Source: a candidate division WWE3 bacterium RAAC2_WWE3_1 (GTDB lineage Bacteria; Patescibacteriota; WWE3; UBA101185; UBA10185). Taken from it: a stretch of 64,000 bases of DNA. Positions 2,828-63,435 of this stretch are shown here, one piece after another. Location: assembly GCA_000503835.1 (NCBI GenBank), contig CP006914.1, forward strand, positions 785,680-849,679. Direction: 5' to 3'. Position 1 is the stretch's first letter; each line of letters begins with the position of its first letter. Both the position numbers and the translations under genes were made by a program. Below the pieces are notes generated by a model. That model saw only the letters and a list, made by a program, of their open reading frames with translations, searched no databases and was not told where the DNA came from.

Positions 2828-2841
2828 TATAATAAAAACAA

Positions 2842-4524: not shown

Positions 4525-4526
4525 AT

Positions 4527-5228: not shown

Positions 5229-5229
5229 T

Positions 5230-8488: not shown

Positions 8489-8490
8489 TT

Positions 8491-46543: not shown

Positions 46544-48763
46544 TTACTTTTGAATAGGTTCCGCGTTATTATCCGACGTTGCCTGTGGCTTGGGGATCTT
46601 TTTTAATGTTCTGGTATAAATCACCACTTTGGCATCCTTCATAAGTTTCGATGAAAGTTGCTGGGAAAGCTCGCTGTGTTTTTCTGCGGTTAACCGTTCG
46701 CGGATATATTCCTTTGATTGCTCAAACGTAAGCTGTTCAGGTTCCGAACGATCCAGAACTTCGACGATGTAGATATAACCATTCGCTTCAAACGGTGGGC
46801 CGATTTCTCCTTTGGGAATAGCCTGGACCTGCTCATGGTACTGATGCTTGACAATTTCTCCCATAAGATCCATTTCCTCTTCCACCCATTCGGCAACTTC
46901 GCCTCCTTTATCTTTTGTGGCTTCATCTTCCGAATATTGTTTGGCAACAGAAGCAAAATCTTCTCCTTTTTTCAGAGGTCCGGGGACGAGCTTTTTGTAC
47001 GCTTCGTTAGCTTTGTCGAAGGCCTTTTTGTGTTCATCGTCGGTTGCGTTATCGGAACTACCCGCACGAATGACGATCTGACGAACCTTTGACTTGGCAG
47101 GTTTTATAAATTGCGGTTTGTTGCGGTTGTAGTACTCCTGGATATCTTTGTCCTCAACTTTGATTTTCTCATCTACCTCCTCCTGTTCAAGCATCTGAGC
47201 CAGGACTTTCAGGCGCATCTCATCTTTGCGCTCCTTTGTTTCAGTTTGGGATACCTGGCTTAGACTGTCTTCGTATAAAAGCAAACGCTCGATAATTTTC
47301 TCAACCAATGCCTGCTTACCTTCAGTACCGGCGTATGAAGATAGAAACGAAAGCGGCAGTTCCTGATATTCTTCCCAGAATTCACCCAACGTAAACCGTT
47401 TGCCGTTGACGGTAAAGAGTGTCCTGTCGGCATTGTCGGTATAATATTTCTTTTCCGTCTCGGTCAGGACCGCCGTCTGCACCTGTGAGCGGATTTCCTC
47501 AAAGCTCTGCTGCCGTTCCGGCTGTTTGGAACTAAGTTTGGCAATGACAAATGAATCTTTGTCAACAATAACATCGCTTATCTGCTGCGGATCTAGCCGG
47601 AAAATCGCTTCTTCATAACCAGGATCGTTTTCTCCTTTGATCCTTGTTTCTCCGGTCTGGGGAAGCGGAGAGCCGGTTATTTCCTGATACACCTGGCCAA
47701 AATCGCTTCCGGAACGGATTTTCGATAAAGTCTGTTCGGCTTTTTCTTTAGCCTTCTTTTCATCAGCGCCTTTCGGAATACGGATTTCAAATACAACGGC
47801 CTGGGCTTTGACCAGATATTTATCCTTATTGGCATCATAGTAGTTACGCAGTTCCCAGTCGGCAGGTTCAGGAATGACCAACACCGCCGGATCACGGGTA
47901 ATTGAGGCTTTATTTTTCAGACCGGTAATGTAGTTTTGGACAAACTGATCTTCTTTTTCACTCTGAAGTTTCGTTTTTATTTCTTCACGGACATCGGTCA
48001 GCGTTTTATCTCCGAAATCCTTTCTGTTGGCGTCATAGTAGGCACCGATGTCTCCCTCGGTTACCCCGAGTTGCCCTTTATGCATTTGGGCATGAAGCTC
48101 ATCCAGGTTTATTTCCTCGGTAATATGCTTCATCACATGGGAAAATTCTTTATCCTGATCGGGTTTGCGGGTAGCCTGCCAGCGTTTGACGATTTCATCG
48201 GTGATCATTTCCTGAACGATCAATGCATACCCTTGGGGAGACTTAAGCTGCATTTGCGTCGCCTTGTCCTCAACGAGAGACGCCAGATGCTTTTCAACAT
48301 CCTCAATCGTGATTCTGCCGCCGTCATATGCCGCGACGACATTAGGGGCTGGTGGCCAGGGGGCAAAAATGTCTTCACGAAATCTAAATATAAGAAATGC
48401 TGCAACTATAATTACGCCCAAAACAATCTTCTTCTTTTTTGATAAGTGAATTTTGGGGAGGGGTAATCGTGATGGCTTACTCTCCGGTGACTGCTCTTCG
48501 GCCTTAATAGACTCTATCGTTTGTACCGGGGGAATTTCCTGAGGTGGAATTTCTTTCGGAACCTCAGCACCTTTTTTATCAGGTTTCTTTTTCTCGTGTT
48601 GAATCCGCACCGGTTTTTCAGGCAGAGGTTTCTGTTTTTGGCTGCCTCCGGAAAAACCCAATGATTGTCTGATGTCAGCAAACACCTGACCCCAGTCCTC
48701 ACCGGATTTGTCTTTAGCGGCCACCTTCGGTTTGTGGTGGGAAGACATTGACTTTTGTTTCAT
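46544..48763 (-). CDS. PpiD/SurA-like membrane-anchored peptidyl-prolyl isomerase (parvulin domains), with a Lys/Pro-rich N-terminus.
   Basis: Single TM (IVLGVIIVAAFLIF). The PpiC-type block GEDFASVAKQYSEDEATKDKGGEVAEW...GEIGPPFEANGYIYIVEV. Confidence 0.6.
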   Translation of the reverse strand: MKQKSMSSHHKPKVAAKDKSGEDWGQVFADIRQSLGFSGGSQKQKPLPEKPVRIQHEKKKPDKKGAEVPKEIPPQEIPPVQTIESIKAEEQSPESKPSRLPLPKIHLSKKKKIVLGVIIVAAFLIFRFREDIFAPWPPAPNVVAAYDGGRITIEDVEKHLASLVEDKATQMQLKSPQGYALIVQEMITDEIVKRWQATRKPDQDKEFSHVMKHITEEINLDELHAQMHKGQLGVTEGDIGAYYDANRKDFGDKTLTDVREEIKTKLQSEKEDQFVQNYITGLKNKASITRDPAVLVIPEPADWELRNYYDANKDKYLVKAQAVVFEIRIPKGADEKKAKEKAEQTLSKIRSGSDFGQVYQEITGSPLPQTGETRIKGENDPGYEEAIFRLDPQQISDVIVDKDSFVIAKLSSKQPERQQSFEEIRSQVQTAVLTETEKKYYTDNADRTLFTVNGKRFTLGEFWEEYQELPLSFLSSYAGTEGKQALVEKIIERLLLYEDSLSQVSQTETKERKDEMRLKVLAQMLEQEEVDEKIKVEDKDIQEYYNRNKPQFIKPAKSKVRQIVIRAGSSDNATDDEHKKAFDKANEAYKKLVPGPLKKGEDFASVAKQYSEDEATKDKGGEVAEWVEEEMDLMGEIVKHQYHEQVQAIPKGEIGPPFEANGYIYIVEVLDRSEPEQLTFEQSKEYIRERLTAEKHSELSQQLSSKLMKDAKVVIYTRTLKKIPKPQATSDNNAEPIQK

Positions 48764-49847
48764 TTCCTTCCAGTAATTTTAGATTAACCCGTTCTCCCGG
48801 CTTAACGATATAGGTAGCGATTCTGGGAAATATTTTTTCCATCCGCTCCAGATACAGCCGGAAACGGGTTACCTGCTCTCCGTAAATACTACTGTTGGTT
48901 CTGTATTGGGTCAAAATTTCATTGAATGCCACCGCTGATCCGCTTGCTTCATTGATCTGCGCAGTCGCCGAACTGCTGGCTTCGGTGATCAATTTTTGGG
49001 CCTGTCCACGGGCCTCAGGAATGACGCTATTTTTATACCCTTCGGCTTCATTGACGGTTTTGCTTTTATCCTCTCTGGCGCTTGAGACGTCACGGAAGGC
49101 ATCGGCTACTTCATCGGGGGGATAAGCCTTTTGAAAGTTGACACTGACAACTGCCAGTCCGCTATTATATGAATCCAGAAGTGTTTGTGTTTCTTTCTGT
49201 AGCCGGTTCAAAACACTCTGACGTTCTGAGGTAAGAATATTATCTACTGCAGTTTCAGCGCTGATCTTTGTTACTGCAGCCCGCACGGCATCACGGACTG
49301 TCTGATACGGAGCATAGTCAATGTTAAAAAGGTAAGCGGCTGGTTCCCTGACCTGATATTGAACAATTACTTCATAATCAATAATATTGGTGTCACCGCT
49401 TAACACCTGCAACTTCCCGGGTTGTTCCATATGTTTGGGGTGCTCCGGTTCCGGACTAAGGAGACCGACACTTTCCCGTCTGACTTCGGAAACACTTACA
49501 ATGGTTTCTTTGTCAACCGGCCACGGCAGCCGATAATGCAGACCCTCCGATACTTTGGGACTGACTACTTTGCCGAAACGGGTAACTACCGCAGCTTCTC
49601 CGGGTTTAACGATATAAATACCTGAGAGAAAATAAATAACCACAATAATTTTGACAATATTCCCGGAAATATAGCGGGCATTAACGTGGGCAAAGGCCTG
49701 TTTGATGTCAGTCAGGGATGATGATCCGTCGGCTGACCGGATTTTGGCCGTGACCGACTGAATCAACCGCACCAGCATACCTATAACCGTGAGTATGCGT
49801 TTGGTAATCTGTGCTAACAGCTGTTTTATGTTGTTTGTTTGTTCCAT
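48714..49847 (-). CDS. hflK: SPFH/band-7 protein HflK.
   Basis: IVKPGEAAVVTRFGKV...LSGDTNIIDYEVIVQYQV...PDEVADAFRDVSSAREDK. Confidence 0.8.
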   Translation of the reverse strand: MEQTNNIKQLLAQITKRILTVIGMLVRLIQSVTAKIRSADGSSSLTDIKQAFAHVNARYISGNIVKIIVVIYFLSGIYIVKPGEAAVVTRFGKVVSPKVSEGLHYRLPWPVDKETIVSVSEVRRESVGLLSPEPEHPKHMEQPGKLQVLSGDTNIIDYEVIVQYQVREPAAYLFNIDYAPYQTVRDAVRAAVTKISAETAVDNILTSERQSVLNRLQKETQTLLDSYNSGLAVVSVNFQKAYPPDEVADAFRDVSSAREDKSKTVNEAEGYKNSVIPEARGQAQKLITEASSSATAQINEASGSAVAFNEILTQYRTNSSIYGEQVTRFRLYLERMEKIFPRIATYIVKPGERVNLKLLEGNETKVNVFPPQTEGGR

Positions 49848-49911
49848 ATAAAGATACCGACACTTCTTTTACTTATCTTCTTCACGATTTCAGCACTTCA
49901 TCTGAATCCGT

Positions 49912-50844
49912 TTACGGATTGAGATATTTTAAGAGTTCTGAATCGGAAGGAAGAATAAGCGTTGTGCCCTGATTTATGACCTTGTCGTATGATTCAAGCG
50001 TACGCAGAAACTGGTAAAACGCCGGATCCTTGCCGAAGGCCTGAGCATAGATACGGATTGCCTGGGCTTCACCCTCTCCCTTAATCTTGTTTGATTCCTC
50101 CTGAGCTTTGGATAAAAGAGTGATTTTCTCAGCGTCAGCTTCGGCTCTGATCTTTGTTGCTTCTTCTGTCCCTTCAGAGCGCAACTGCCTGGCTATCTGC
50201 TGACGTTCTGCGCGCATGCGCTGAAATACACTTTGTCTATTGGACTCGGGGAAATTAAGCTGTTTGAGCCGCACATCGGCAACTTTAAAGCCGTAGGATC
50301 GTGTCCGTTCGTCTGTTTGCTTGGTAAGGCCCGCAAGCATTTCATCCAGCTTCATCTGGCTTTGGTCGGTAGTGACCAAATTGGTCAACTCATACTGTGA
50401 CAGCGCCACTCCGAGTTCGGACGTAAGAATATCCGATAGCCGTGAGGACGCTCCCTGGGCATCTCTGACACTTTTGAAAAATTGCACTGGGTCATCTATC
50501 TGCCAGGTAGCGTATGCTTCTACCAATACGTTCTTCTTGTCTTTGGTCAGGAACTCGGTTTGGGTGACGTTATGCACCTGAACGCGCTTATCCAGGCGAA
50601 TTAGATTTTGCAAAGGATCGGGAAGTTTGACATACAACCCCGGCTCTTTAATCGCCCGGACCGGACTGCCGAACTGAGAGACGATGGCATACTGCGTGGC
50701 GTCTACCTGAAAAGCGACTAACGTCGAGAGAATCAATAGGATTCCGACTCCTAAACCAACTAACACTTTCGGCTGACGCAGCGTCTGCCAACTGATTCTG
50801 TTTCTTGCCTGGTCTACAAACGATGATTGTGTTCTGTTTCTCAT
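49912..50844 (-). CDS. hflC: SPFH/band-7 protein HflC.
   Basis: VDATQYAIVSQFGSPV...LTKDKKNVLVEAYATWQI...ADVRLKQLNFPESNRQSVFQRMRAER. Confidence 0.8.
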   Translation of the reverse strand: MRNRTQSSFVDQARNRISWQTLRQPKVLVGLGVGILLILSTLVAFQVDATQYAIVSQFGSPVRAIKEPGLYVKLPDPLQNLIRLDKRVQVHNVTQTEFLTKDKKNVLVEAYATWQIDDPVQFFKSVRDAQGASSRLSDILTSELGVALSQYELTNLVTTDQSQMKLDEMLAGLTKQTDERTRSYGFKVADVRLKQLNFPESNRQSVFQRMRAERQQIARQLRSEGTEEATKIRAEADAEKITLLSKAQEESNKIKGEGEAQAIRIYAQAFGKDPAFYQFLRTLESYDKVINQGTTLILPSDSELLKYLNP

Positions 50845-50856
50845 AAATTCACCTCC

Positions 50857-52377
50857 TTACGGTTGAGCAGGTTTTCCATTAGTAATCCACAAATCAGTGG
50901 AATTGGTTTCCACCCGTGGATCGAGAATGTATTTTTTAATGTTTGGTAACACTTTCTCTAAAGACTCTAAATACAGTCTGGTACGGGTTACCTGAGGTGC
51001 ATTCTGATATGCCGCGAGTTTTTTGTTAAAGCGCTCTGATTCGCCGGTTGCCAAAGCGATCTTGCTGGCTTTTTCAGCTTCTGCTGCTGTTACCTGTTTG
51101 GTAGCTTCTCCGCGGGCAACAGCCACTGTCTCGTTTTTATACGCCAGGGCTTCATTCATGTAAGTATTCTTGTCTTCTCTGGCGCTGGCCACATCCAAGA
51201 ATGCGTCTGCGACTTCGTTGGGTGGAGTAACAGAAAGAAGCTGTATATTGGCAACTTTTATGCCAGTGTTATGTTCTTCAAGCAAGCTCTGAGTCTTTAT
51301 TGAAGTATCGGCGAGAATGGCACTTCGACTGGCCGTCAATAAATCATCGACACCCTTCTGAGCAACAGCAGCCCGGAATGCGGTTTCTGTTTCCTTAGCA
51401 AGTAAGTTTTCAGGATTTTGAGTGCTAAAAATATAGTTAGCTGGATTAGTGATCGTATACTGCACCGTTAATTTTGTATTAATGAGGTTGGTGTCTCCCG
51501 TAAGCACCAATGAAGCTTCAGTTTCGACTTGGCGAACTTGGTCAACATTCACTCGTGATATGGAATCGACAAGAGGCACACGAATATGAATTCCTGAGCC
51601 AAAAGTGCCGGCCACTTTTCCAAATCTCTGTACTACAGCCTGTTCGCCCATAGGAACGGTATAAACGCCGGAAAGCAGGATGAAAATAAGAGCAATGCCT
51701 CCGAGGTATGCAAGCATCCGCTTATTGTGCAAAAAGGCTAGGTGATGGTGTCCCTCAATATGATTGGGTAATGCCTGTTTGGTCCGCAGGGCATGAACGG
51801 CTGACTCGGCAATTTCCCAGCCGGAGGTAACGATCAGAACAATCACAAATATCGCGGCCAATTTATCCAAAGCCGGAAACCCAACAGCGGCGGCGATCAG
51901 ACCTACGACGACAAGCATTGAAGCATAAAGGTCCATCCGCGAGTGGTACCCGCTGGCAATCAGAGAAAGGGAGTCAGTTGCCCGACCAACGAATTCTTTA
52001 TAGCGTGCAGTGAAGTAGGTAATGGCAATTGTTAAAAATGCACCGATTGTCACGGGCCAGATATTTCGTAGATCGGGTGTTTCCGAAGCACCGGTTACTT
52101 CCCTGAAAATATCCAGCGCGGAGAAAAACATCAGACCTGAGACGATCAGGGCAACGATATTCTCGATTGTTCCTGCCTGCAACCGCCGTCTGGCTTCCCA
52201 GGCCGCAGATAAAAGCCCTAAAAGTACAAAGACAGAAACAAATACATCCCCGACAGAATGCCAGGCACTGGCTTTAAGGGATAAACTACCCGATGAGGAG
52301 GCAAGGAAGAACTTGAGAAGAACCAGAATAACGTTTGCAACAATGGTGACGACAATAGTTTTTTCTTTCCGGTTCAT
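50857..52377 (-). CDS. Fusion protein: an N-terminal cation-diffusion-facilitator (CDF)-like 6-TM domain and a C-terminal HflK-like SPFH domain.
   Basis: GSLSLKASAWHSVGDVF and ASGYHSRMDLYAS carry HxxxD motifs as in CDF TM2 and TM5. The C-terminal half (YTVPMGEQAVVQRFGKV...PPNEVADAFLDVASAREDK) is paralogous to the adjacent HflK. Confidence 0.55.
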   Translation of the reverse strand: MNRKEKTIVVTIVANVILVLLKFFLASSSGSLSLKASAWHSVGDVFVSVFVLLGLLSAAWEARRRLQAGTIENIVALIVSGLMFFSALDIFREVTGASETPDLRNIWPVTIGAFLTIAITYFTARYKEFVGRATDSLSLIASGYHSRMDLYASMLVVVGLIAAAVGFPALDKLAAIFVIVLIVTSGWEIAESAVHALRTKQALPNHIEGHHHLAFLHNKRMLAYLGGIALIFILLSGVYTVPMGEQAVVQRFGKVAGTFGSGIHIRVPLVDSISRVNVDQVRQVETEASLVLTGDTNLINTKLTVQYTITNPANYIFSTQNPENLLAKETETAFRAAVAQKGVDDLLTASRSAILADTSIKTQSLLEEHNTGIKVANIQLLSVTPPNEVADAFLDVASAREDKNTYMNEALAYKNETVAVARGEATKQVTAAEAEKASKIALATGESERFNKKLAAYQNAPQVTRTRLYLESLEKVLPNIKKYILDPRVETNSTDLWITNGKPAQP

Positions 52378-52473
52378 AGCTAGGTAATATGAATTCTCTG
52401 GGCAGCATCAATAACTTATTATTTTACTACAAATTGTAGGAGAATTGTGTCATAATTTCAAGAGGGTAGATAT

Positions 52474-53241
52474 ATGAATATTTTTAGCGCGATTTTGCTT
52501 GGACTTATTGAAGGAGTTACAGAATTTTTACCGATTTCATCAACCGGTCACATGATTCTAGTCTCCGATATTCTTAAGCTGCCTAATACTGATTTTCTGA
52601 AATCATTTGAGATAGCAATTCAAGTGGGAGCAATCTTTGCAATTATTGTCATGTACACACCAAGGTTCTTAAAGAATATTAGGGTATATCAGCTTCTTCT
52701 CTTCGCATTTCTGCCAGCAACAATAATTGGGTTCCTATTCTATGACTTTATTAAAACATATTTATTTAATCCAGCAATCGTTTCAGCAACACTAATAACA
52801 GGTGGAGTATTTCTTGTTTATTTTGATCGCAAGATAAAGAACCACTCAGAAAAGATTGAAAAGCTTGAGGAAATCTCCAGTAAAGATGCTTTTATTATTG
52901 GACTTTCACAAACTTTAGCCATGATCCCTGGAGTGTCGAGGGCGGCTGCAACTATCACGGGTGGAGTACTTCGAGGTTTATCCAAAAAACAAGCCATGGA
53001 ATTTTCGTTTCTTCTAGCAGTTCCAACAATGCTTGCAGCTACCGGATATGATTTGATAAAGACCTCGTCTAACTACTCAACATATGAATTTGGATTATTA
53101 GGGATGGGAAGTATTGTTTCGTTTGTATCAGCTTGGATAGCAGTTAGGCTCTTTATCAAAATCATAGACAAACATGGCTTAGCTTTTTTTGGTTATTACA
53201 GAATAATTTTAGGCGTGGTGTACTTGTTGTATTTTCAGTAG
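52474..53241 (+). CDS. uppP: Undecaprenyl-diphosphatase.
   Basis: LGLIEGVTEFLPISSTGHMIL. Confidence 0.85.
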   Translation: MNIFSAILLGLIEGVTEFLPISSTGHMILVSDILKLPNTDFLKSFEIAIQVGAIFAIIVMYTPRFLKNIRVYQLLLFAFLPATIIGFLFYDFIKTYLFNPAIVSATLITGGVFLVYFDRKIKNHSEKIEKLEEISSKDAFIIGLSQTLAMIPGVSRAAATITGGVLRGLSKKQAMEFSFLLAVPTMLAATGYDLIKTSSNYSTYEFGLLGMGSIVSFVSAWIAVRLFIKIIDKHGLAFFGYYRIILGVVYLLYFQ

Positions 53242-53498
53242 AAATATTTACTTCAATTGCTTAGCACTCTCTTCGGTCTTTGTTCAATTGGTTCACCTGA
53301 CGGTAAATCTACTTCTAAGGGGTTTACAGCTTCACCGTTTTTTAACATAGCGTATTGAAGATGAGCACCTATTAAGCCGACATATTCAATTTTCTAGTTT
53401 TGTTTGACTTCTGAATACGCTTTTGTCCCTTCGGGGTAAAAAAAAGTCCAAAGATAAAATTCAAGCCTTTGAATTCAAGGGGTTAACGTATCAGCAGT

Positions 53499-54431
53499 TT
53501 ACCAAAACCTAAAACCCTTAAGTATCCGTTCATAGACCCGATAGGGTTTGGGTCCAACTAAACCTTTGCCATTAACAAATACCAATGGGGTACCGTAGAT
53601 ATTAGTTTTCTCCAGTTCGATCCGTTGCGCGACGACGGCCGCCTGGGTTTGGGGAGACTGGCTGCAGGAATTGATTGCCGACACGTCATATCCCAGATTT
53701 CCAAGAATATTTTCTACAAATTCCTTTTTGGCAATATCTTCCTTGGAGCTGGCAAAGAGTTTATCGTTTAACCGCCAGTATTTATTTTGGTCCTGGTTAT
53801 ACGCGCAGTAGCCGATAGGCAGAAGGTAAAGCATTTCTTCTTTGATGGGGTAATGGGCAAAGGTATAGTTGACCTGATTTTCTGAAATAAGTTTTTGGAT
53901 CAGCGGGTATGCTTTTCTGGTATAGTCGCAGCTATAACAACCAATGAATACCACCGAATCCTTGACTCCTTTATCAACGGTGGGGAAAAGACTTAAATCA
54001 ACGCTAGTAAGAGTAACCTTACTTTCATCTCCCGCTCCGTCTACACAACTGCCGCCGGTTTGGGAAACTTTATTATTCTCGCCTTTCGGATCCAGGGCAC
54101 AGAAGCCGGTTTTATTCAGACCATTGCAGCTGCCGTACATGTAATAGTTATAGAGTCCCTTGCCTGTCCAGAAAATGCTGGCGACTGTGGTGATAAATAA
54201 TATCCACGAAAGCAACTCAAAATGTCTGTTGACTATCCTGGCTGCAATAGCAGAACGGGAAAGCAGTGTTCCTACCAGCTGTGCCTTCATCTTTTCTTTA
54301 AACCCGGTAGTGCAGGGGCGAAGTGTAATCCGCCTAAAAACGCAGTCAAATGCCTCTTTAGCCAACCATCGGTGAGAGGCGCTAAATATACTGATAATTG
54401 ATAAAGCGATAAACGCTAAAATACAAAACAT
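53499..54431 (-). CDS. Membrane-anchored thioredoxin-fold (DsbA-like) protein.
   Basis: Two N-terminal TM segments plus a Cys-rich loop; CYSC redox motif; C-terminal YGTPLVFVNG. Confidence 0.45.
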   Translation of the reverse strand: MFCILAFIALSIISIFSASHRWLAKEAFDCVFRRITLRPCTTGFKEKMKAQLVGTLLSRSAIAARIVNRHFELLSWILFITTVASIFWTGKGLYNYYMYGSCNGLNKTGFCALDPKGENNKVSQTGGSCVDGAGDESKVTLTSVDLSLFPTVDKGVKDSVVFIGCYSCDYTRKAYPLIQKLISENQVNYTFAHYPIKEEMLYLLPIGYCAYNQDQNKYWRLNDKLFASSKEDIAKKEFVENILGNLGYDVSAINSCSQSPQTQAAVVAQRIELEKTNIYGTPLVFVNGKGLVGPKPYRVYERILKGFRFW

Positions 54432-54435
54432 AGGT

Positions 54436-55632
54436 TTAGAGAATACTTAATACCTTGTGTAATTCCTTAACAAAAAGTTCAGCTTCTTCAAGCGTGTTAT
54501 AAAAATAAACGGATGCCCGTACCGAGCCGGGAATCTTTCTGTCAGCAAACCACGAATGGACACAGTGTTGACCCGAGCGCACCATGATTTTTGTGGAGGC
54601 ATCAAGCATCAGGGCGATCTGGTGATGGTCTTTGCCGGAAATATAGAAGGAAATAATGCCGCTTCTTTCTTTCGGATCAGAAGGGCCAAGAATAACCAGA
54701 TTAGGGATTTTCTGCAGTTCCTCAGTTATGTAGCTATTCAGTGCATATTCCTGTTTCTGAATTTGGGCAAAACCAATCCTTTCAAGATACGAAACTGCTT
54801 CTCCCAAACCTATGATACCCGCATAATCCTGAAGACCCGCCTCAAACTTTTCCGGCGGGGGGAGAAATTCACAGGAATCATAGGTTGATGAAGAAACAGT
54901 ATCACCTCCGACTAAAAATGGTGAAAGTTTTTCCAGAAGTTCATATTTACCATAGAGGACACCCGTTCCGGACGGACCCAGCATCTTATGACCGGAAAAA
55001 GCCAGAAAATCAACATCCAGTTTCCTGACATCAATTACCTGATGCGGTATCGCCTGAGCTGCATCAAGTAACACGACCGCTCCGTCTTGATGTGCCAGTT
55101 TAATAATCTCGGCAGCGGGAATCGTCACACCGTCCAGGTTGGATGTCATGCCCAAGCTCACCAGTTTTACGCCGCTTTCTAGCGCCTGTTTGTAGGCATC
55201 CATGTCAAACGTATTATCGTCCCTCGACCGCACAATCCGGTGAATAATTCCGGATTTCCTATGCAATATTTGCCAGGGAATAAGGTTTGAGTTATGTTCT
55301 TTATCTGAAGTAAGAACTACGTCACCTTCCTTGAGATTTAAAGTATTTGCTACGAGATTAATTCCTTCGGTGGTATTTCTGGTAAAAACGATTTCTTCTT
55401 TCCGTTTGGCGTGCAGGAATTTGGCAATCCGCGTCCGGGCCTCGTCACACTTTTGGGTAACCTTAGCAGCCAGATGGTGGTTGCTTCTTCCGGCACAGGC
55501 AGAATACTCCTGATAATATTCGGTTACTGCGTTTATCACCGATTGAGGGCGCAAGCTCTGACAGGCATTGTCAAAATAAATGCCGTTTTCTGAAAGCACC
55601 GGAAAATCATGTCTGATTTTTGTTATATCCAT
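54436..55632 (-). CDS. Class V aminotransferase-fold cysteine desulfurase (SufS/NifS-like).
   Basis: FLAFSGHKMLGPSGTGVLYG PLP-Lys motif; C-terminal catalytic Cys region. Confidence 0.8.
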   Translation of the reverse strand: MDITKIRHDFPVLSENGIYFDNACQSLRPQSVINAVTEYYQEYSACAGRSNHHLAAKVTQKCDEARTRIAKFLHAKRKEEIVFTRNTTEGINLVANTLNLKEGDVVLTSDKEHNSNLIPWQILHRKSGIIHRIVRSRDDNTFDMDAYKQALESGVKLVSLGMTSNLDGVTIPAAEIIKLAHQDGAVVLLDAAQAIPHQVIDVRKLDVDFLAFSGHKMLGPSGTGVLYGKYELLEKLSPFLVGGDTVSSSTYDSCEFLPPPEKFEAGLQDYAGIIGLGEAVSYLERIGFAQIQKQEYALNSYITEELQKIPNLVILGPSDPKERSGIISFYISGKDHHQIALMLDASTKIMVRSGQHCVHSWFADRKIPGSVRASVYFYNTLEEAELFVKELHKVLSIL

Positions 55633-55634
55633 AT

Positions 55635-57539
55635 TCAGTTCTTTCGGGTATCGAAATTAAATAACCTTAGACTGTTGGCCACCACCAGAACAGTCACCCC
55701 AACATCAGCAAAAATGGCTAAGGCTAAACTACTCTTTCCTACCAAAGCTAGTGCCAGGAAAATAGCTTTAACCGCAATTGCCGCACCGGTATTAATGCGG
55801 ATCGTACTACCCGATATTCTGCCTAATTTTACCAAGAAAGGAATGAGTCCGAGGTTATTGTTCATCAGGGCAATATCGGCATTCTCGACAGCAACTTCAG
55901 AACCGATCGCTCCCATGGCAATGCCAACCGAGGCAGTTGAAAGGGACGGGGCATCATTAACCCCATCACCGACCATGGCCACATCTTTATGTTTATTCAC
56001 TAAGTTTTTTAATTGAATGACTTTCTCATCCGGCAAGAGCTTGGCGTGGACTTCATCAATACCGACTTCCTTGGCAACGTAGCCGGCAGCTGACGGGTTG
56101 TCTCCGGTAAGGATGGCCGTTTTGACTTTTAATTTATGCAGTTCTCTGACAGCTGTAGAACTTTCCGGTCGTATCTCATCAACAATTCCTAAAATGCCTT
56201 TGAGTTTTTTGTCATCGCTTATGATAATGGCGGTTTTCCCTTCTTTTTCAAACCGTTCCACAATATCTACAGCCCGCTGATCTACCTTGTGCTCCTCCAT
56301 CACAAACTGCAGCGTGCCTATACAGTGGTGCTTATCAACACAGACCAGACATTCACCGGAAATACCTTTGCCTAAGATTGCCTTAAAGTTGGCATACTCG
56401 TGGACTTTGATATCGGGAAAACTTTTTGAACTTTCGACAATGCTTTTGGCAATCGGGTGTTCGGAGAAAGCTTCAGCTCCGGCCACACAGGCCAGAAGTT
56501 CACCTTTGGAGTACCCGTTTAAGGGAATGACGTCAGAGACTGCCGGCTCGCCTTTGGTGAGCGTTCTGGTTTTGTCAAAAGCAACAGCCTTAATTCTGCC
56601 CATCTCTTCCAAAAACTGGCCGCCTTTAATGAGGATCCCGCGTTTAGTGGCGTTGCCAATGGCGGAAAAGATTGTGATAGGGGTGGAGATAACCAATGCA
56701 CAGGGACAAGCGATTAAAAGAATCGTCAGGCTCTGGGCAAACCACGGAGTAAACGGTTGGGAAAGGAATACTACGGGGATAACCGTCAGTAAAGCCGCTA
56801 CAACCAAAACTCCCGGCGTATAGTAGGAAGCGAATTTTTCTATAAACTTAGCGGCCTGAGACTTCCGTTCTGCCGCCTGAAAGGTCAGATCCACGATTTT
56901 AGCCAGGGTAGTGTCTTTGGAAGTTTTGGTAACCTTAATTTCCAGATACCCCTGGCTGTTTAGCGTTCCGGCAAAAACCAGTTCCCCCATATATTTGTTT
57001 TTCGGCAACGGTTCTCCGGTGATGCTGCTTTCATCAACCAGCGACTCACCTTTTACCACCACCCCGTCCAGGGGAATATAATCCCCGGGTTTGACGACTA
57101 CGATATCGTTGACTGATATTTTCTCTATCGGCGTTTTGGTATCCTGCCCTTTAAGTAACGCAGTTTTAGGAGCTTTTTCAACTAGTTCCTCCAGAGCATT
57201 CTGGCTTCTCTCAATACCAAACTCTTCCATGGCCTCACTGACGGCAAACAGGACGATAATAATAACGGCTTCTTCCAGCTCGCCCAGATAGACGGCCCCA
57301 AAGGTAGCCACGGTCATGAGCAGATTGATATTGGAAAACCTGAGTCTGACCAGGCTTTGCAGGCCACCGATAATGACATCACGGCCGAAAAAGAAAATGA
57401 TAGCCGCAAACAACGGATACTCGACAAATTTAGGCAGATGAACCGAAAAAAGTGACAGGATTTCAAGAGGAATAATGAGAAGGAGAGTGGCTGCTAGCCG
57501 CTTAAACTTGGTTTCTTTGAAAATCTCTGAAATAAGCAT
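55635..57539 (-). CDS. P1B-type heavy-metal-translocating ATPase (CPC type) with no N-terminal HMA domain.
   Basis: ACPCALVISTP, DKTRTLT, GDGVNDAP and TGES-like motifs. Confidence 0.8.
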   Translation of the reverse strand: MLISEIFKETKFKRLAATLLLIIPLEILSLFSVHLPKFVEYPLFAAIIFFFGRDVIIGGLQSLVRLRFSNINLLMTVATFGAVYLGELEEAVIIIVLFAVSEAMEEFGIERSQNALEELVEKAPKTALLKGQDTKTPIEKISVNDIVVVKPGDYIPLDGVVVKGESLVDESSITGEPLPKNKYMGELVFAGTLNSQGYLEIKVTKTSKDTTLAKIVDLTFQAAERKSQAAKFIEKFASYYTPGVLVVAALLTVIPVVFLSQPFTPWFAQSLTILLIACPCALVISTPITIFSAIGNATKRGILIKGGQFLEEMGRIKAVAFDKTRTLTKGEPAVSDVIPLNGYSKGELLACVAGAEAFSEHPIAKSIVESSKSFPDIKVHEYANFKAILGKGISGECLVCVDKHHCIGTLQFVMEEHKVDQRAVDIVERFEKEGKTAIIISDDKKLKGILGIVDEIRPESSTAVRELHKLKVKTAILTGDNPSAAGYVAKEVGIDEVHAKLLPDEKVIQLKNLVNKHKDVAMVGDGVNDAPSLSTASVGIAMGAIGSEVAVENADIALMNNNLGLIPFLVKLGRISGSTIRINTGAAIAVKAIFLALALVGKSSLALAIFADVGVTVLVVANSLRLFNFDTRKN

Positions 57540-57580: not shown

Positions 57581-58066
57581 TTATTCTTGTTTAAGATCGC
57601 CGATAAAGAAACCTTTTAATAACTCATTAGCTTGGGCGGGATGTGGCCCTTTATTGTTGGTGGGGCGTTCGTTAAACAACGTCGAGGCATCTTTCCCGCA
57701 ACCTCGCACTATTGCCTTACCACCCGGATGTTTTGGGATGAACTCAGTCACGTTATACACTTTCCCTTCGATAGCCATCCAACAGTCTTTTTCTGAATTG
57801 TGCGTGACAACTTCAGCCAAGCTATATGTTTTCGCTTCTGTCGAAGGAGTGTCGGAAACCTGCGATTCTCCTGGAGAAGCTGCAGTAGGTGAATTCCGTA
57901 GGGAACTACCTTCAGGCTGCGGGAGAGATTTGGATGACTTATTGGAAAACAATAAAAACCCTCCGCCCAGAAGCAAAACACCGACCACTACGACACCAAT
58001 TATCATAGGACTCGTCGATTGTTTCGGTTGTTTATTTTGATTAACATTTTCGTCCATAAGTTCCAC
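57581..58066 (-). CDS. Membrane-anchored cytochrome b5-like heme-binding domain protein.
   Basis: Single TM, a Ser/Pro-rich linker, then EVVTHNSEKDCWMAIEGKVYNVTEFIPKHPGG (the b5 HPGG motif). Confidence 0.55.
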   Translation of the reverse strand: MELMDENVNQNKQPKQSTSPMIIGVVVVGVLLLGGGFLLFSNKSSKSLPQPEGSSLRNSPTAASPGESQVSDTPSTEAKTYSLAEVVTHNSEKDCWMAIEGKVYNVTEFIPKHPGGKAIVRGCGKDASTLFNERPTNNKGPHPAQANELLKGFFIGDLKQE

Positions 58067-58072
58067 CTCCTC

Positions 58073-58945
58073 CTATAAAATCTCTTTCGGTGCCGAAATA
58101 ACAGATGAGATGCTGTATTCATTGACAATAAATTGCTCACCATCGGAAGCACGTTTCACCATGTAATCGGATGCACCCTTGTAAAACTCGAGGGTTTCCA
58201 TCTTACCGTCGTATTCAACTGTAAAAACCAGACTGGTCTGTTTCGGATAAGTACTTTTACCTGTAACATCATAAAGAGATTGCGCGGTCAGGCTATTAAT
58301 TTGAGAAAGAATGGGGTCCATTTTATCTTTTCCGATTTCTTCATTTTTAGAGCCGCCTTTCCATTTATCTCCTTCTTTAGTGAGTATGGTTATCGAATTT
58401 CCTTCTCTGAAAGTAATTTTCGTGGCTTTGGTCTGATCAAAGGCAAGAATAGTTTTGTCATACCACTCGGAAGCAATTGAAGTAACTGATGGATTATTTT
58501 TAAGAAGGTAAACGGCAGGATCGCTATCGAACCGGGTATAAACCCCTGAAGCTGCGGATTTCCCGGTAAGCAAAGTGAGTTTGTTATCAAGCTTTATTTT
58601 AGTGGCCAAGTCGTCGGTCAGTTCTAATTCTTTGTGACGTTTGTCTGTCTGAGCAATCAGCTCAGGGGAAGTTGTGGGAAGCAGGGATGAGAGAAGACTG
58701 TTGATTTTAGCGGTATCCGCCTTTTTACCGTTTACTTTCCAGACGTCTCCCTCTTTCTTCAGTTGCACGGATCCGGAGGAATTACTGATTTCAATTGCAG
58801 AAACGGTCTGGGCGCTGATGTCTTTTGTTTTTTGGACATAGGCTGAGGTAGGTTGTGATAAAGAAGGCGCATACTGCTTAAAGACCAAAAGGCCTATCAA
58901 AACAATAAAAACTGCCAGTAGTAATTTTATATTTTTATTTGACAT
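58073..58945 (-). CDS. DUF4340-like accessory protein of a GldG-type ABC system.
   Basis: N-terminal TM; position immediately downstream of the GldF/G-like gene. Confidence 0.4.
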   Translation of the reverse strand: MSNKNIKLLLAVFIVLIGLLVFKQYAPSLSQPTSAYVQKTKDISAQTVSAIEISNSSGSVQLKKEGDVWKVNGKKADTAKINSLLSSLLPTTSPELIAQTDKRHKELELTDDLATKIKLDNKLTLLTGKSAASGVYTRFDSDPAVYLLKNNPSVTSIASEWYDKTILAFDQTKATKITFREGNSITILTKEGDKWKGGSKNEEIGKDKMDPILSQINSLTAQSLYDVTGKSTYPKQTSLVFTVEYDGKMETLEFYKGASDYMVKRASDGEQFIVNEYSISSVISAPKEIL

Positions 58946-61118
58946 AGGTTCTTTGCGTGAGTAATTTTCTGCGCCTCAGGTAATAAACGGCAAACCCGAT
59001 GACTACCACCGGAGGAATGAGTAAGTTTCCGTACTGGACAAACAAAATATCCGTAGGCGACTTAAACTCAAAGACTGCACGTCCGGAAGATTTACTCGGT
59101 ATTGCCGCCAGATCCTTGTCAGTAGCTAAATAATCGATGGTGTTTGACAGGAAGGCTACATTGTCGCGGTTATTCCCCAGGAACTGATCGTCAGCCAGAG
59201 TGTTTGAGCCTATCACAACCAGACGGGTGTCTCCTTTTTCTGCAAGTGCGGCAAGAGTCACTTCCTTAGCATTCGGCCGCAGGCTTCCCACTGCCTGCGG
59301 GGAAATATTGAAACTCCCTTCTGTTTTTCCCGCATTCGGACCGGTCGTAAGAAGCTTCTTCTGGGTTACTCCGTCTTTTGTCTCAAGCGTGACAGAGCTT
59401 GGCCAGCCTAAACTGATACTCTTAACCGTTGCCAGAGGTGAGAAATTGGTATCTGCCGGAAGAGCCCGCAACCAGTACGGGTACTGAGCCAGATAGCGCT
59501 GTCCACCCTGTCCTCCAAAAGCCAAGGTCTCTGAAAGCTGCAAATCATAAACCAGATCGGTATTCACGGTTATACCATAGTCTTTAAGTACCCCTAACAT
59601 CGGCGAAGTACTGACCTGGGCCGAAAGGGTCTGCTGGCTGACATTCACACCGCTGATCATCACCAGAGCTTTTCCGCCGCTACCGAGATACTCCTTAAGG
59701 GTGGCGGAAGCTGTACTTTGGTTTTGACTGCTACCGTCATCTATCACCAACAAAGCCGATAGATCTTTGACAGCTGACGCATCACCTTCAGAAATAGTCT
59801 TTACCTGGTATTGAGTAGAAAGGAACTCATTAAGCACTTGGTTTTGCGAGTATCCGCCTTGCATGATACCAATTGTTTGCTCCTTTTCGTTTGTTAGCTT
59901 TCTGATCCTGCGGGTTAACTGATATTCAAGATCCGAAGAATCCGACACAAAAGGAATGCTTTCGGTTTTGTCCCCGTAACGCACGGCAATTCCCAGAACC
60001 CCCGCCTGAACTTCGAATTTGCCTGATCCGACACTATTAAACTGTATCTCTCTGATTCCTGCCTGCTGGGCTTCTGAAGCTGCCTGGGGATTATCGGGAT
60101 AAACCACCTGGGTTTTTACATTACGGCTCAATTTCTCATAATCCTTGAGAAGATCAGTAATGTCGCGGGCGACCAGCTGGATCTGAGCGGGTAACTCACG
60201 GGATTGGTAAACCGTAATAGTGACTATGTCCGGCAGGTTCCTGATTGTCTGCTTGGTGCCTATCGACAAAGTGAAAAGTCTGGCCTGAGTAATATCCAGA
60301 CGGATCGGATATGATGACAACAAAATATTAGAGACAATACCGATGCCTGCGATAAGTCCGAATGCAAAATTCAGTTTTCTCTTTTCAGCGGGATTTTCAA
60401 CTGTCTTTCTTTCCGAAAGTTTAGTAACGGCAGCAGCCAGAAATAATCCGGTGATGGTGAGGAAGTAAAAGACATCACGGATGTCTAAAAGTCCCCGGGC
60501 AATGTTTTCTCCATGGGTTAATACTGACAACTCCGCCGCAATTCTGCTGAACGGAAAAGGCAGCATCTGGGTGACAAAGTCCAGTCCGATAATAATGAGT
60601 ACAAACCCGGTTGCAGCAGAAAGAAGAAAGCTGCTGATGGCGTTTTTAACGTAAGCAGAGGCAGCAATGCCGATGGATAAAAATGTAGCTCCGATAAAAA
60701 GCGCCCCGATATACTGTCCGGCAATCTGCCCAATATCAGGTCGGGAGTATGCAACCAGGGTCAGAGGTAAACCCATCGTTGTCAGTAGTATGATGACATA
60801 AAAAGAAAGCGCGCCGAAGAATTTCCCCAGGACAATTTCCAGTTCCGAGATCGGGTGGGCAAACAAAAGCTCCAGCGTCTCGGAGCGGTGCTCATCCGTC
60901 AGAAGTTTCATTGAGAGGGCCGGAGCTAAAAGCAGTAAAAACCAGGGCAAAAGTTCAAAGTAGGGCCGCAGACTTGCCTCGCCTCCGACTAAGGCGGTAC
61001 GGGTATAAATAAATATCGAAAGCAGCAAAAACGGTACGATCACCGTGTACGCCAAAGCGCTGTTGATGTAACCGAGAAATTCTTTTTTGGCAATTCTTTT
61101 AATCAGATTTAGTTTCAT
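58935..61118 (-). CDS. Fused ABC-2 permease (GldF-like) and GldG-like domain protein.
   Basis: N-terminal 6-TM ABC-2 domain, a large GldG-like extracytoplasmic region, and a C-terminal TM. Confidence 0.6.
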   Translation of the reverse strand: MKLNLIKRIAKKEFLGYINSALAYTVIVPFLLLSIFIYTRTALVGGEASLRPYFELLPWFLLLLAPALSMKLLTDEHRSETLELLFAHPISELEIVLGKFFGALSFYVIILLTTMGLPLTLVAYSRPDIGQIAGQYIGALFIGATFLSIGIAASAYVKNAISSFLLSAATGFVLIIIGLDFVTQMLPFPFSRIAAELSVLTHGENIARGLLDIRDVFYFLTITGLFLAAAVTKLSERKTVENPAEKRKLNFAFGLIAGIGIVSNILLSSYPIRLDITQARLFTLSIGTKQTIRNLPDIVTITVYQSRELPAQIQLVARDITDLLKDYEKLSRNVKTQVVYPDNPQAASEAQQAGIREIQFNSVGSGKFEVQAGVLGIAVRYGDKTESIPFVSDSSDLEYQLTRRIRKLTNEKEQTIGIMQGGYSQNQVLNEFLSTQYQVKTISEGDASAVKDLSALLVIDDGSSQNQSTASATLKEYLGSGGKALVMISGVNVSQQTLSAQVSTSPMLGVLKDYGITVNTDLVYDLQLSETLAFGGQGGQRYLAQYPYWLRALPADTNFSPLATVKSISLGWPSSVTLETKDGVTQKKLLTTGPNAGKTEGSFNISPQAVGSLRPNAKEVTLAALAEKGDTRLVVIGSNTLADDQFLGNNRDNVAFLSNTIDYLATDKDLAAIPSKSSGRAVFEFKSPTDILFVQYGNLLIPPVVVIGFAVYYLRRRKLLTQRTYVK

Positions 61119-61122
61119 AACT

Positions 61123-62031: not shown

Positions 62032-62037
62032 ATGTTT

Positions 62038-63165: not shown

Positions 63166-63211
63166 ATTTTGTTATTTTACTATGTTTTGTAGTAATTTTT
63201 AAACCCTTTAT

Positions 63212-63430
63212 TTATGAGGCGACTTTCACCTCATATTCCAGTGACTTTATAACTTCAATAATCTTTCCCAGGTTAACCACATTCGGATCGAAAGTGACAA
63301 CCGTTTTTTGCTTAGCGTAATTTGTGCTGGCTTCCCTGACACCCTTTAAGTCCTCCAGCTCAAAGTCAATATTCATGGCACAACTGGTGCAATGCATGCC
63401 GACAATTTTTAATGTTACCGTTTTCATCAT
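63212..63430 (-). CDS. copZ: Copper chaperone CopZ (HMA domain).
   Basis: LKIVGMHCTSCAMNI (MxCxxC). Confidence 0.75.
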   Translation of the reverse strand: MMKTVTLKIVGMHCTSCAMNIDFELEDLKGVREASTNYAKQKTVVTFDPNVVNLGKIIEVIKSLEYEVKVAS

Positions 63431-63435
63431 TTTTA

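Follow-up and report, generated by a model that had tools for sequence, protein, structure and literature searches.

Three open reading frames on the minus strand occupy positions 48714..52377 of the window (the whole 64-kb stretch of DNA that was analysed), and they form one unit with a fourth that overlaps the last of them. Read 5' to 3', the order is gene A (CDF-HflK fusion), gene B (hflC), gene C (hflK2) and gene D (PPIase):

50857..52377, minus strand: gene A, CDF-HflK fusion, 506 aa, stop codon at 50859..50857 (Pfam, NCBIfam, AF2, Foldseek)
49912..50844, minus strand: gene B, hflC, 310 aa (TIGR01932)
48714..49847, minus strand: gene C, unfused second hflK paralog (hflK2), 377 aa (TIGR01933)
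46544..48763, minus strand: gene D, membrane-anchored PPIase with two parvulin domains (PpiD/PrsA-like), 739 aa (Pfam and synteny)
52433..52461, minus strand: candidate sigma-70-like promoter, TTGAAA-17-TACAAT, inside the 96-bp gap that precedes gene A

The first-pass annotation had described a three-gene cluster at 48714-52377 with hflK and then hflC downstream of the fusion. Its coordinates were right and both genes do follow gene A, but hflC (TIGR01932) precedes hflK (TIGR01933), and the PPIase gene at 46544..48763 belongs to the unit as well. Gene B starts 12 nt past gene A and is preceded by a strong ribosome-binding site (AAGGAGG); gene D overlaps hflK2 by 50 nt and is translationally coupled to it. 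The putative promoter agrees with the consensus at 10 of 12 positions; it is considered a candidate only, since sigma-70-like sites were no commoner in the region than in shuffled sequence (consensus scan).

Gene D matches Pfam Rotamase_2, Rotamase_3 and, weakly, SurA_N_3, and contains one hydrophobic segment (residues 107-125). Like PpiD and PrsA, it combines an N-terminal anchor, a SurA-N-like region and parvulin domains; unlike PpiD, it has two parvulin domains and a coupling to hflK2. In Escherichia coli, depletion of YidC induces PpiD together with HflK and HflC (PMC7618853). Assignment of gene D as the PpiD equivalog (NF008054) was rejected (51.7 bits vs a cutoff of 493), only its architecture (anchor, weak SurA_N_3, parvulin domains) being PpiD-like.

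Domains and topology of the fusion protein

Gene A is made up of the following parts:

51781..52377, minus strand: CDF membrane domain, residues 1-199, six TM helices (AF2 helices, YiiP alignment)
52260..52258, 52248..52246, 51945..51943 and 51933..51931, minus strand: transport-site codons H40, D44, H145 and D149, respectively
51724..51780, minus strand: His-rich cytoplasmic linker, residues 200-218 (NHIEGHHHLAFLHN), which replaces the CDF C-terminal domain (AF2, family alignment)
51661..51723, minus strand: seventh TM helix, about residues 219-239, equivalent to the one membrane anchor at the HflK N-terminus (AF2 helix 219-235; hydropathy peak 221-239)
50860..51660, minus strand: extracytoplasmic HflK ectodomain, residues 240-506, with SPFH, a long coiled-coil helix (387-459) and a C-terminal helix

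By profiles, YiiP alignment and fold, the N-terminal domain is a complete CDF membrane domain. Pfam Cation_efflux (PF01545) covers residues 9-197 (profile positions 2-197 of 198, E 1.8e-24, 87.1 bits vs a cutoff of 26.6), and the NCBIfam CDF model TIGR01297 scores 90.0 bits against a cutoff of 82.35. AF2 helices span residues 3-29, 32-61, 68-95, 106-133, 137-164 and 169-199, a fold for which Foldseek retrieved YiiP (8f6k_B, E 8.6e-8, rmsd 3.3 A over 203 columns; 5vrf_A, E 1.2e-6). A CDF-like domain had been proposed from the sequence, and a lack of CDF similarity in profile searches had been named as the outcome that would refute it; profiles, alignment and Foldseek gave the opposite result. 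The two HxxxD motifs, H40-x3-D44 and H145-x3-D149, also lie at the TM2 and TM5 positions originally assigned to them, as in the phmmer alignment to E. coli YiiP/FieF (2qfi) H40/D44 align exactly with D45/D49 (TM2) and H145/D149 with H153/D157 (TM5). The resulting HD-HD quartet is that of Zn-transporting ZnTs, ZnT8 included; the A-site quartet alone does not settle metal selectivity (PMC8341793). The absence of the CDF cytoplasmic domain was confirmed, since ZT_dimer, a typical but not universal CDF feature, gave no Pfam match in gene A even at E<=0.1. MamB and MamM are the top-scoring named CDF subfamily models in NCBIfam; assignment as a magnetosome CDF was rejected, with 86.8 and 53.7 bits far below cutoffs of 350 and magnetosome genes absent.

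In the AF2 model (mean pLDDT 85.5, pTM 0.49) TM6 and the next helix are only about 20 residues apart, and residues 208-216 of this disordered linker have a pLDDT below 50. With this pTM and linker, the model does not fix the placement of the CDF domain relative to a ring. Across the family the segment from the end of TM6 to the start of TM7 is near-constant in length (28-36 aligned residues). In a conservation set of 116 sequences, 42-90% identical to the window protein, His content reaches 10.9% in the linker slice (window residues 199-222) vs 1.0% elsewhere, and an H-x(1-3)-H motif occurs in that slice in 96 of the 116.

Six TM helices had been counted at first; AF2 and hydropathy give seven, the last being the HflK anchor. 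The predicted cytoplasmic loops contain 13 K/R residues vs 1 outside, consistent with the N-terminus inside and SPFH outside. Because of TM7 the SPFH domain is extracytoplasmic, and it is therefore not where a CDF cytoplasmic domain would be. The idea that an HflK-like SPFH domain takes the place of that domain thus stands with regard to the full HflK ectodomain (TIGR01933) but fails with regard to its location, which is outside the cell.

The C-terminal part of gene A is HflK by sequence, fold and phylogeny. Pfam Band_7 covers residues 240-415 and the hflK model TIGR01933 residues 238-487 (237.6 bits vs a cutoff of 159.4); residues 228-486 align with residues 87-344 of E. coli HflK (7vhp) at about 35% identity (phmmer, E 2.9e-50), and Foldseek matched this part to HflK 7vhq_E. 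Gene B scores 210.3 bits on TIGR01932 (cutoff 134.4) and gene C 228.2 bits on TIGR01933 (cutoff 159.4). Gene C shares 40-41% identity with the HflK part of gene A, compared with 48-63% for orthologues in other genomes. The phylogeny of the two HflK paralogs, which the first-pass annotation had proposed as a check, placed A and C with E. coli HflK in 100 of 100 bootstraps (NJ tree); B grouped with E. coli HflC and the HflK2 clade was recovered equally often, and the A, B and C subtrees contain the same groupings of loci. The view that an SPFH cage subunit is joined to a metal-ion transporter-like module is supported.

No ftsH was found in the 64-kb window nor within 8-10 kb of the unit in any related locus (14 kb for the Aquibium plasmid locus), and because of this a link to FtsH is drawn only from homology to E. 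coli HflK/C. That the loci lack ftsH says little about such a link, since E. coli ftsH is likewise not adjacent to hflKC.

Spread of the unit and its neighbourhoods

A homologue search with gene A gave 327 clusters (90% identity) at E<=1e-10. The best 120 of these all contain both the CDF and the HflK domain, so the fusion, which had been suggested as a target for searches in other genomes, is widespread (at least 120 clusters). When the membrane domain alone was the query, 73 of the best 150 matching representatives (50% identity) carried an SPFH domain; the nearest unfused relatives are ordinary HD-HD CDFs. H40, D44 and H145 are invariant in 116 of 116 sequences, the membrane domain having just eight such positions in all, and D149 is D in 104 and D, E or H in 115 of them. 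Among 59 broader fusion representatives, 53 have the HDHD quartet, and the further CDF signature residues E72 and D171 are conserved in the fusion family.

The order fusion, HflC, HflK2, PPIase is kept in all 13 independent PPIase-type loci examined, which span Patescibacteria-like, Chloroflexota, Alphaproteobacteria and Spirochaetota members, gene D always directly following hflK2. A longer fusion subgroup (550-620 aa, locus L012) retains the HflK/HflC/HflK triad and has neither PPIase nor metal genes nearby.

Upstream of the unit in the window lie two context genes:

53499..54431, minus strand: membrane-anchored DsbA-like thioredoxin protein, 310 aa (Thioredoxin_4 and DSBA matches)
55635..57539, minus strand: P1B-type heavy-metal ATPase of the Zn/Cd/Pb class with a CPC motif, 634 aa (TIGR01512)

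The ATPase scores 499 bits on TIGR01512 (cutoff 313.5) and 361 on the Cu-type model TIGR01511, under its cutoff of 397. It is syntenic in two related loci (L001 and L002), in the first of which the DsbA-like gene is directly upstream of gene A. A P1B ATPase is encoded within 10 kb in 10 of the 13 PPIase-type loci, and 7 of the 8 ATPases typed, in addition to that of the window, are ZntA-like. Other neighbours across loci include DsbA/DsbB, SCO, PCuAC, ArsR/MerR/CsoR, canonical CDF, NicO and Nramp proteins. An OmpR-type two-component system adjoins the unit in nine loci; in two of these the best match of the kinase is a heavy-metal sensor kinase model, at a score below the NCBIfam cutoff, and one adjacent system is closer to EnvZ/CpxA. 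Some loci contain copper-type neighbours (PCuAC, SCO, CopC/D, multicopper oxidase); copper is not a typical CDF substrate, and these loci count against a Zn-type reading. The unit is present on a finished conjugative plasmid of the cultured strain Aquibium oceanicum B7, and some loci are found in transposon-rich islands. The first-pass annotation had missed the wide spread, the constant PPIase, the metal-resistance neighbourhoods and the hflC-then-hflK order.

Comparison with known systems and proposed function

As in the E. coli HflK/HflC-FtsH system (7vhp, 7wi3, 9cz2), hflC is adjacent, the N-terminus is inside, and one anchoring helix directly precedes the extracytoplasmic SPFH domain and coiled coil. 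The fusion differs in that the ~80-residue N-terminal cytoplasmic tail of E. coli HflK is replaced by the six-helix CDF domain and the His-rich linker, and the unit in having two HflK paralogs per HflC and a co-encoded PPIase. Unlike the housekeeping locus hfq-hflX-hflKC of E. coli, it is mobile and found in a metal-resistance setting. The membrane domain shares with YiiP/FieF (2qfi, 3h90, 8f6k) the six-helix fold (rmsd 3.0-3.4 A over ~200 columns) and a quartet on TM2 and TM5, but, unlike YiiP and ZnT8, the fusion is devoid of ZT_dimer and its C-terminus is extended by a seventh helix followed by an extracytoplasmic domain. Aligned with Lys77 of YiiP is a Thr; in YiiP that Lys takes part in a charge interlock to the CDF C-terminal domain. 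For CDFs lacking that domain, it has been proposed that metal is chelated instead by cytoplasmic sequence enriched in His, Cys, Asp or Glu (PMC8341793); these CDFs have a metal-rich N-terminal tail and no SPFH domain, whereas the His-rich stretch of the fusion is the TM6-TM7 linker. QmcA-YbbJ (NfeD; 8z5g) and human stomatin-aquaporin-1 (9zd2) likewise pair an SPFH cage with a specific membrane protein, although as separate polypeptides; here the partner is covalently fused, and there is therefore one transporter per fused HflK subunit.

The unit can be read, with a probability of about 0.55, as a mobile module against divalent-metal stress, its HflK/C assembly containing a Zn-type CDF and working with a foldase. 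Gene A encodes in this reading a seven-TM protein whose CDF (SLC30-type) metal/proton antiporter membrane domain has lost the cytoplasmic C-terminal domain and is joined by the His-rich linker to the HflK anchor and the extracytoplasmic SPFH/coiled-coil body. Together with the co-inherited HflC and unfused HflK, it would most likely assemble into a hetero-oligomeric ring or cage of the HflK/C type on the outer side of the membrane, with a built-in CDF transporter at some or all HflK positions. The CDF part is predicted to export most likely Zn2+, possibly Cd2+ or Co2+, in exchange for protons. With the C-terminal domain gone, metal may be gathered by the linker instead, and the subunit association that this domain normally gives may come from the SPFH oligomer. 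Metal efflux would in this way be joined to envelope protein quality control through HflK/C, an FtsH encoded elsewhere and the foldase. It can be speculated further, as a tentative extension, that up to twelve Zn-type CDF domains are held at fixed positions of the HflK/C ring, ring assembly replacing the CDF dimerisation domain, and that efflux, FtsH proteolysis and a dedicated foldase are coupled in one mobile envelope-defence machine. If true, this would be the first case of an SPFH cage subunit and its membrane client in one polypeptide, and a system of defined stoichiometry for studying what SPFH microdomains do to enclosed proteins.

Alternative readings and wider meaning

A different, unlikely role for the CDF domain is that of a regulator, which would bind metal and, by inward/outward switching transmitted via TM7, open or close the HflK/C ring, tuning FtsH access to membrane substrates under metal stress. 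Such a gate would suit a fusion from which the metal-sensing, transport-activating cytoplasmic domain of CDFs is gone and in which only ~20 residues lie between the transporter and the ring-forming helix; an open, nautilus-like form of native HflK/C, in which substrates have an entryway, is known from E. coli (PMC12048511), and metal binding also needs the conserved transport site. Nevertheless, the retention of the whole six-helix domain plus E72 and D171 exceeds what metal binding would require, the nearest proteins without the fusion are ordinary HD-HD CDFs, and ftsH is missing from the window and related loci.

By analogy with ZnT5-7, which load secretory enzymes with Zn, the CDF part might pump Zn2+ under the SPFH dome for the loading of exported proteins folded by the PPIase. 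This is rather improbable: the neighbours are efflux/resistance genes and metal-sensing regulators, not Zn-dependent exoenzymes, and resistance better explains why the unit is found on a plasmid and in transposon-rich islands, even though, judging from the homologous structures 7vhp and 9cz2, the dome surrounds an extracytoplasmic space, the foldase is always co-encoded in the main subgroup and DsbA/DsbB-type oxidoreductases are frequent neighbours.

A stomatin/QmcA-like microdomain that only clusters or stabilises the transporter, with no protease involved, would agree with the lack of ftsH at every locus and with the protease-free SPFH cages with partners among the fold matches (9zd2, 8z5g). 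The probability of this scaffold is low as well, considering that A, B and C all score above HflK or HflC equivalog cutoffs and group with E. coli HflK and HflC in 100 of 100 bootstraps, and that the E. coli ftsH gene also lies apart from hflKC. That the membrane domain is a relic, or the fusion an assembly or gene-calling error, has nothing but the unusual architecture in its favour and is already contradicted by the conservation data, namely the same uninterrupted ORF in at least 120 clusters, in independent assemblies and on a finished plasmid of a cultured strain, with invariant transport-site residues and a model pLDDT of 85.5.

Cryo-EM structures have recently been solved for HflK/C, stomatin, flotillin, prohibitin and erlin cages, and the question they leave is what SPFH cages do to membrane proteins that they enclose or adjoin. 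That a cage subunit covalently fused to a transporter is widespread and strongly conserved is a direct evolutionary hint that SPFH rings organise transporters, and the module is a tractable system because it is carried on a conjugative plasmid in cultured A. oceanicum B7. With respect to metal biology, the sequences point to a CDF that would operate in a new oligomeric context and has dispensed with its regulatory C-terminal domain, and a previously unrecognised four-gene unit is added to Zn/Cd resistance islands. Full-text literature searches found no published description of the CDF-HflK fusion or of the four-gene unit, in line with the original remark that such a fusion is not described for HflKC-FtsH. 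Databases name the fusion proteins plain "HflK", and the transporter half is for this reason invisible to annotation-based surveys.

Domain composition of the fusion protein and gene order

The region 48714..52377 contains three contiguous ORFs on the minus strand, which the first-pass annotation had described as a CDF-like membrane domain fused to an HflK paralog and followed by hflK and hflC. Based on NCBIfam matches, the order of the two downstream genes has to be corrected: hflC comes directly after the fusion gene and hflK last, overlapped by a fourth gene.

52377..50857, minus strand: gene A, CDF-HflK fusion protein, 506 aa
50844..49912, minus strand: gene B, HflC (TIGR01932, 210 bits)
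49847..48714, minus strand: gene C, second, unfused HflK (HflK2; 228 bits)
48763..46544, minus strand: gene D, double-parvulin PPIase, 739 aa, overlapping gene C by 50 nt

The gaps between genes A and B and between B and C are 12 and 64 nt, respectively. Besides two parvulin PPIase regions, the gene D product contains a single hydrophobic anchor and a stretch that weakly resembles SurA-N; it does not belong to the PpiD equivalog of NCBIfam. In a promoter scan, predicted sites were no commoner than in shuffled sequence, and the one located in the gap upstream of gene A is only a candidate.

Residues 9-197 of the fusion protein match Pfam Cation_efflux over almost the complete profile (positions 2-197 of 198; E 1.8e-24; 87 bits vs a cutoff of 26.6), confirming the proposed CDF similarity of the N-terminal domain, and residues 240-415 match Band_7/SPFH. 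In NCBIfam the N-terminal part belongs to the CDF superfamily (TIGR01297, 90.0 vs a cutoff of 82.35) and the C-terminal part to the HflK equivalog (TIGR01933, 237.6 vs a cutoff of 159.4). The best-scoring named CDF models were those of MamB/MamM, yet the scores were far below cutoff and this membership was rejected. No ZT_dimer, the cytoplasmic C-terminal domain of CDFs, was detected with Pfam and the protein has no room for one, in agreement with the absence of this domain proposed previously.

An AlphaFold2 model built with 116 homologues as input (mean pLDDT 85.5) contains six long helices (residues 3-29, 32-61, 68-95, 106-133, 137-164 and 169-199), a disordered segment (200-218), a seventh helix (219-235), and a β-rich SPFH domain with a coiled-coil helix of ~70 residues (387-459). 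The six-TM topology anticipated from the sequence thus holds for the CDF part, with the seventh helix to be added. In Foldseek searches against PDB, the N-terminal part retrieved the CDF YiiP (8f6k_B, E 8.6e-8, rmsd 3.3 Å over 203 columns; also 5vrf_A) and the C-terminal part E. coli HflK (7vhq_E, E 5e-21, 35% identity). At the sequence level, residues 228-486 align with residues 87-344 of E. coli HflK (E 2.9e-50); the full-length protein retrieved only SPFH proteins from PDB by single-sequence phmmer, while the membrane domain searched alone reached E. coli YiiP/FieF (2qfi, E 3e-4). In the YiiP alignment H40/D44 correspond to D45/D49 and H145/D149 to H153/D157, which form transport site A with two ligands in TM2 and two in TM5, so that the two HxxxD motifs do occupy the CDF positions assigned to them.

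The C-terminus of CDFs is normally cytoplasmic and the HflK ectodomain lies outside the membrane. Both topologies are reconciled because of the seventh helix, which corresponds to HflK's own anchor. A protein with the N-terminus inside, seven TM helices and the SPFH domain outside fits the Lys/Arg bias, with 13 of these residues in the predicted cytoplasmic loops vs 1 in the outside loops. The component families are known, each part being placed by its profile match except for the absent CDF C-terminal domain and the PpiD equivalog, and the identity of the parts, taken alone, is very probably correct.

Conservation and phylogeny of the four-gene unit

A search of 5.8 billion proteins produced 327 clusters at E<=1e-10, and all of the best 120 of these contain both Pfam domains, with a length of ~500-560 aa; a protein 87% identical to that of gene A derives from a Microgenomates MAG. 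The membrane domain alone gave 428 matches at the same threshold among 1.84 billion 50%-identity representatives, with an SPFH domain C-terminal to it in 73 of the best 150. Its closest non-SPFH relatives bear other C-terminal additions, Rhodanese without ZT_dimer in protein P0124 and ZT_dimer plus a Nitro_FeMo-Co domain in P0154 and P0171; members of this CDF clade apparently tend to exchange their C-terminal domains.

When 116 full-length members (42-90% identity to the window protein) were aligned, no more than eight membrane-domain positions proved invariant, among them H40, D44 and H145; the position of D149 is occupied by Asp (104 sequences), Glu (7) or His (4). The HDHD quartet is also kept in 53 of 59 more divergent fusion representatives. 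The linker region between TM6 and TM7 aligns as a segment of 28-36 residues of near-constant length, and a narrower slice of it contains 10.9% His vs 1.0% in the remaining protein; 96 of the 116 sequences have an H-x(1-3)-H motif there. A complete HD-HD CDF membrane domain, covalently linked to HflK, is under strong purifying selection. Neither a relic anchor nor an assembly artefact would present such a conserved site and linker pattern, and both explanations are effectively excluded; a gene-fusion artefact is also contradicted by the recurrence of the fusion in many independent assemblies and in a finished plasmid.

In five of five loci from a genome scan, whose fusion proteins are 48-93% identical to that of the window, all four genes lie on the same strand in the order fusion, HflC, HflK2, PPIase, and this order was also found in seven further metagenome/MAG loci and one plasmid locus. 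In one of these, a metagenome contig (L016:1791-7130), hflK2 and the PPIase gene are broken into several short ORFs, which could represent assembly-error frameshifts or decay of the unit.

The two HflK paralogs of one genome are 33-41% identical, vs 44-93% (fusion) and 48-94% (HflK2) for orthologues between genomes. In a neighbour-joining tree of SPFH cores (100 bootstraps) that included E. coli HflK and HflC, the A and C proteins grouped with E. coli HflK (100/100) and the B proteins with E. coli HflC (100/100), the HflK2 proteins of the PPIase-linked operons formed a clade (100/100), and the same locus groupings were recovered in the A, B and C subtrees. Based on these identities and matching subtrees, A, B and C have travelled together since an old duplication; the fusion is co-inherited with HflC, the second HflK and the foldase.

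A subgroup of longer proteins (550-620 aa, e.g., P0129) also combines CDF and HflK and is followed by HflC and HflK, with neither PPIase nor metal genes nearby. One such locus was included in the tree:

L012:7256-11094: 581-aa CDF-HflK with its own HflC and HflK partners

Here both HflK paralogs pair with each other, suggesting that an independent duplication or gene conversion may have occurred.

Metal-resistance context and mobility of the unit

Genes for metal homeostasis and envelope redox functions predominate around the PPIase-type unit, including P1B ATPases, canonical CDFs, NicO, Nramp and ZIP transporters, ArsR/MerR/CsoR regulators, PCuAC, SCO1, multicopper oxidase, cupredoxins, DsbB/DsbA pairs and DUF305, and integrases and transposases are common as well. 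In 10 of 13 independent loci, a P1B ATPase gene is located no more than 10 kb from the unit. The ZntA-like Zn/Cd/Pb class scores best for seven of the eight typed ATPases, the other being CopA-like, and for that of the window itself (57539..55635).

In nine loci the unit adjoins genes for a HAMP-HisKA kinase and a regulator of the OmpR family; no two-component system was found in the 64-kb window. The best NCBIfam model for the kinase was a heavy-metal sensor kinase in two loci, below cutoff. Membership in heavy-metal two-component families was rejected, as the adjacent kinases and regulators did not reach the NCBIfam cutoffs and one of the pairs was more EnvZ/OmpR- or EnvZ/CpxA-like; these systems are only described here as heavy-metal-like or envelope-stress-like.

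In the cultured bacterium Aquibium oceanicum B7 the unit is carried on a 166-kb conjugative plasmid (NZ_CP018172.1), in the order two-component system, unit, ZntA-like ATPase, PCuAC, SCO, DsbB and a thioredoxin protein, with CopC and CopD nearby; the annotation of the fusion (WP_072608301.1) reads simply “FtsH protease activity modulator HflK.” Other named carriers are found in Alphaproteobacteria (Tianweitania, with the protein WP_209336517.1 in T. sediminis, Anderseniella and Oceanicaulis, besides Aquibium), Chloroflexota (Kouleothrix, Caldilineaceae), Spirochaetota, Omnitrophota and Patescibacteria-labelled MAGs. Groupings in the tree do not follow these taxon labels, which fits horizontal spread. 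The unit is mobile and associated with a Zn/Cd-type resistance context.

A full-text literature search, with most subscription journals outside its reach, did not retrieve any account of CDF-SPFH or CDF-HflK fusions, nor is one mentioned in a 2026 survey of Pseudomonas SPFH proteins, consistent with the earlier statement that such a fusion is not described for HflKC-FtsH complexes. The apparently undescribed feature is the combination of an SPFH cage subunit bearing a fused transporter, a triad of two HflK and one HflC, a dedicated foldase, and joint mobility as one unit beside metal-resistance genes.

Possible function and gene content of the window

CDFs function as metal/proton antiporters, and their transport site is site A. 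HflK and HflC alternate in a ring or nautilus-like cage, the TM helices of which fence the membrane patch that holds FtsH (PMC12048511). It can be hypothesized that the three SPFH proteins form an HflK/HflC-type ring with CDF domains attached at HflK positions, that this ring would take over from the missing CDF dimerisation domain, that the His-rich linker may supply the transporter with Zn2+ (perhaps Cd2+ or Co2+), and that the unit would couple metal export to the quality control of envelope proteins under metal stress. This reading is slightly favoured, with a probability of about 0.55. Alternatively, the fusion may act as a metal-gated regulator of the cage or form part of a metallation compartment. 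The assembly may also act as a protease-independent scaffold; tblastn with E. coli FtsH as query detected no ftsH in the 64-kb window or any related locus examined.

In the window the unit comes after a Zn/Cd-type ATPase, a SufS-like gene and a DsbA-like gene, all on the same strand, and this metal/unit block has a GC content of 44-49% vs 38.5% in the flank at 40-46.5 kb.

52474..53241, plus strand: uppP/bacA (undecaprenyl-diphosphatase) ORF, 36% GC, between the dsbA-like and fusion genes
54436..55632, minus strand: SufS-family cysteine desulfurase, between the Zn/Cd ATPase and DsbA-like genes
57581..58066, minus strand: cytochrome b5-like heme-binding protein
63436..63963, minus strand: cupredoxin-like protein with a DsbD_2-like N-terminal fragment

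The 1004 bp bearing uppP (52466..53469) are absent from the related locus L001, where the flanking DNA is ~87% identical and the flanks abut within 12 bp; this stretch has the appearance of an insertion into an ancestral cluster whose genes all lay on one strand. The SufS-family gene is syntenic in L001, L002 and L004, and its product reached 384 bits with the model for encapsulin-cargo cysteine desulfurases, which is below cutoff. The DsbA-like protein (53499..54431, minus strand, 310 aa) has a thioredoxin fold only over residues 165-305. Its N-terminal ~160 residues contain hydrophobic segments and C30, C40, C102 and C111 with no Pfam match, a sequence pattern that may represent a fused DsbB/VKOR-like reoxidation module. 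An ABC/GldG-like transporter and a further DsbA-like gene (62038..63165) lie between the cytochrome b5-like and cupredoxin-like genes, and based on the gene content of 57581..63963 the redox/metal flavour reaches the end of the window.

At the opposite end, 11..7347 (plus strand) encodes a type IV secretion-like set with a DUF4012 protein, a PrgI-family protein and a TraG/VirB4-like P-loop ATPase, a combination common in Patescibacteria. It is followed by dnaN and a short YidC (262 aa) at 7376..9728 (minus strand), with miaB, miaA, an AI-2E transporter and yceG nearby; dnaN, YidC, miaB, miaA and yceG mark the region as chromosomal, from a bacterium that looks Patescibacteria/Microgenomates-like, monoderm-type and small in genome.
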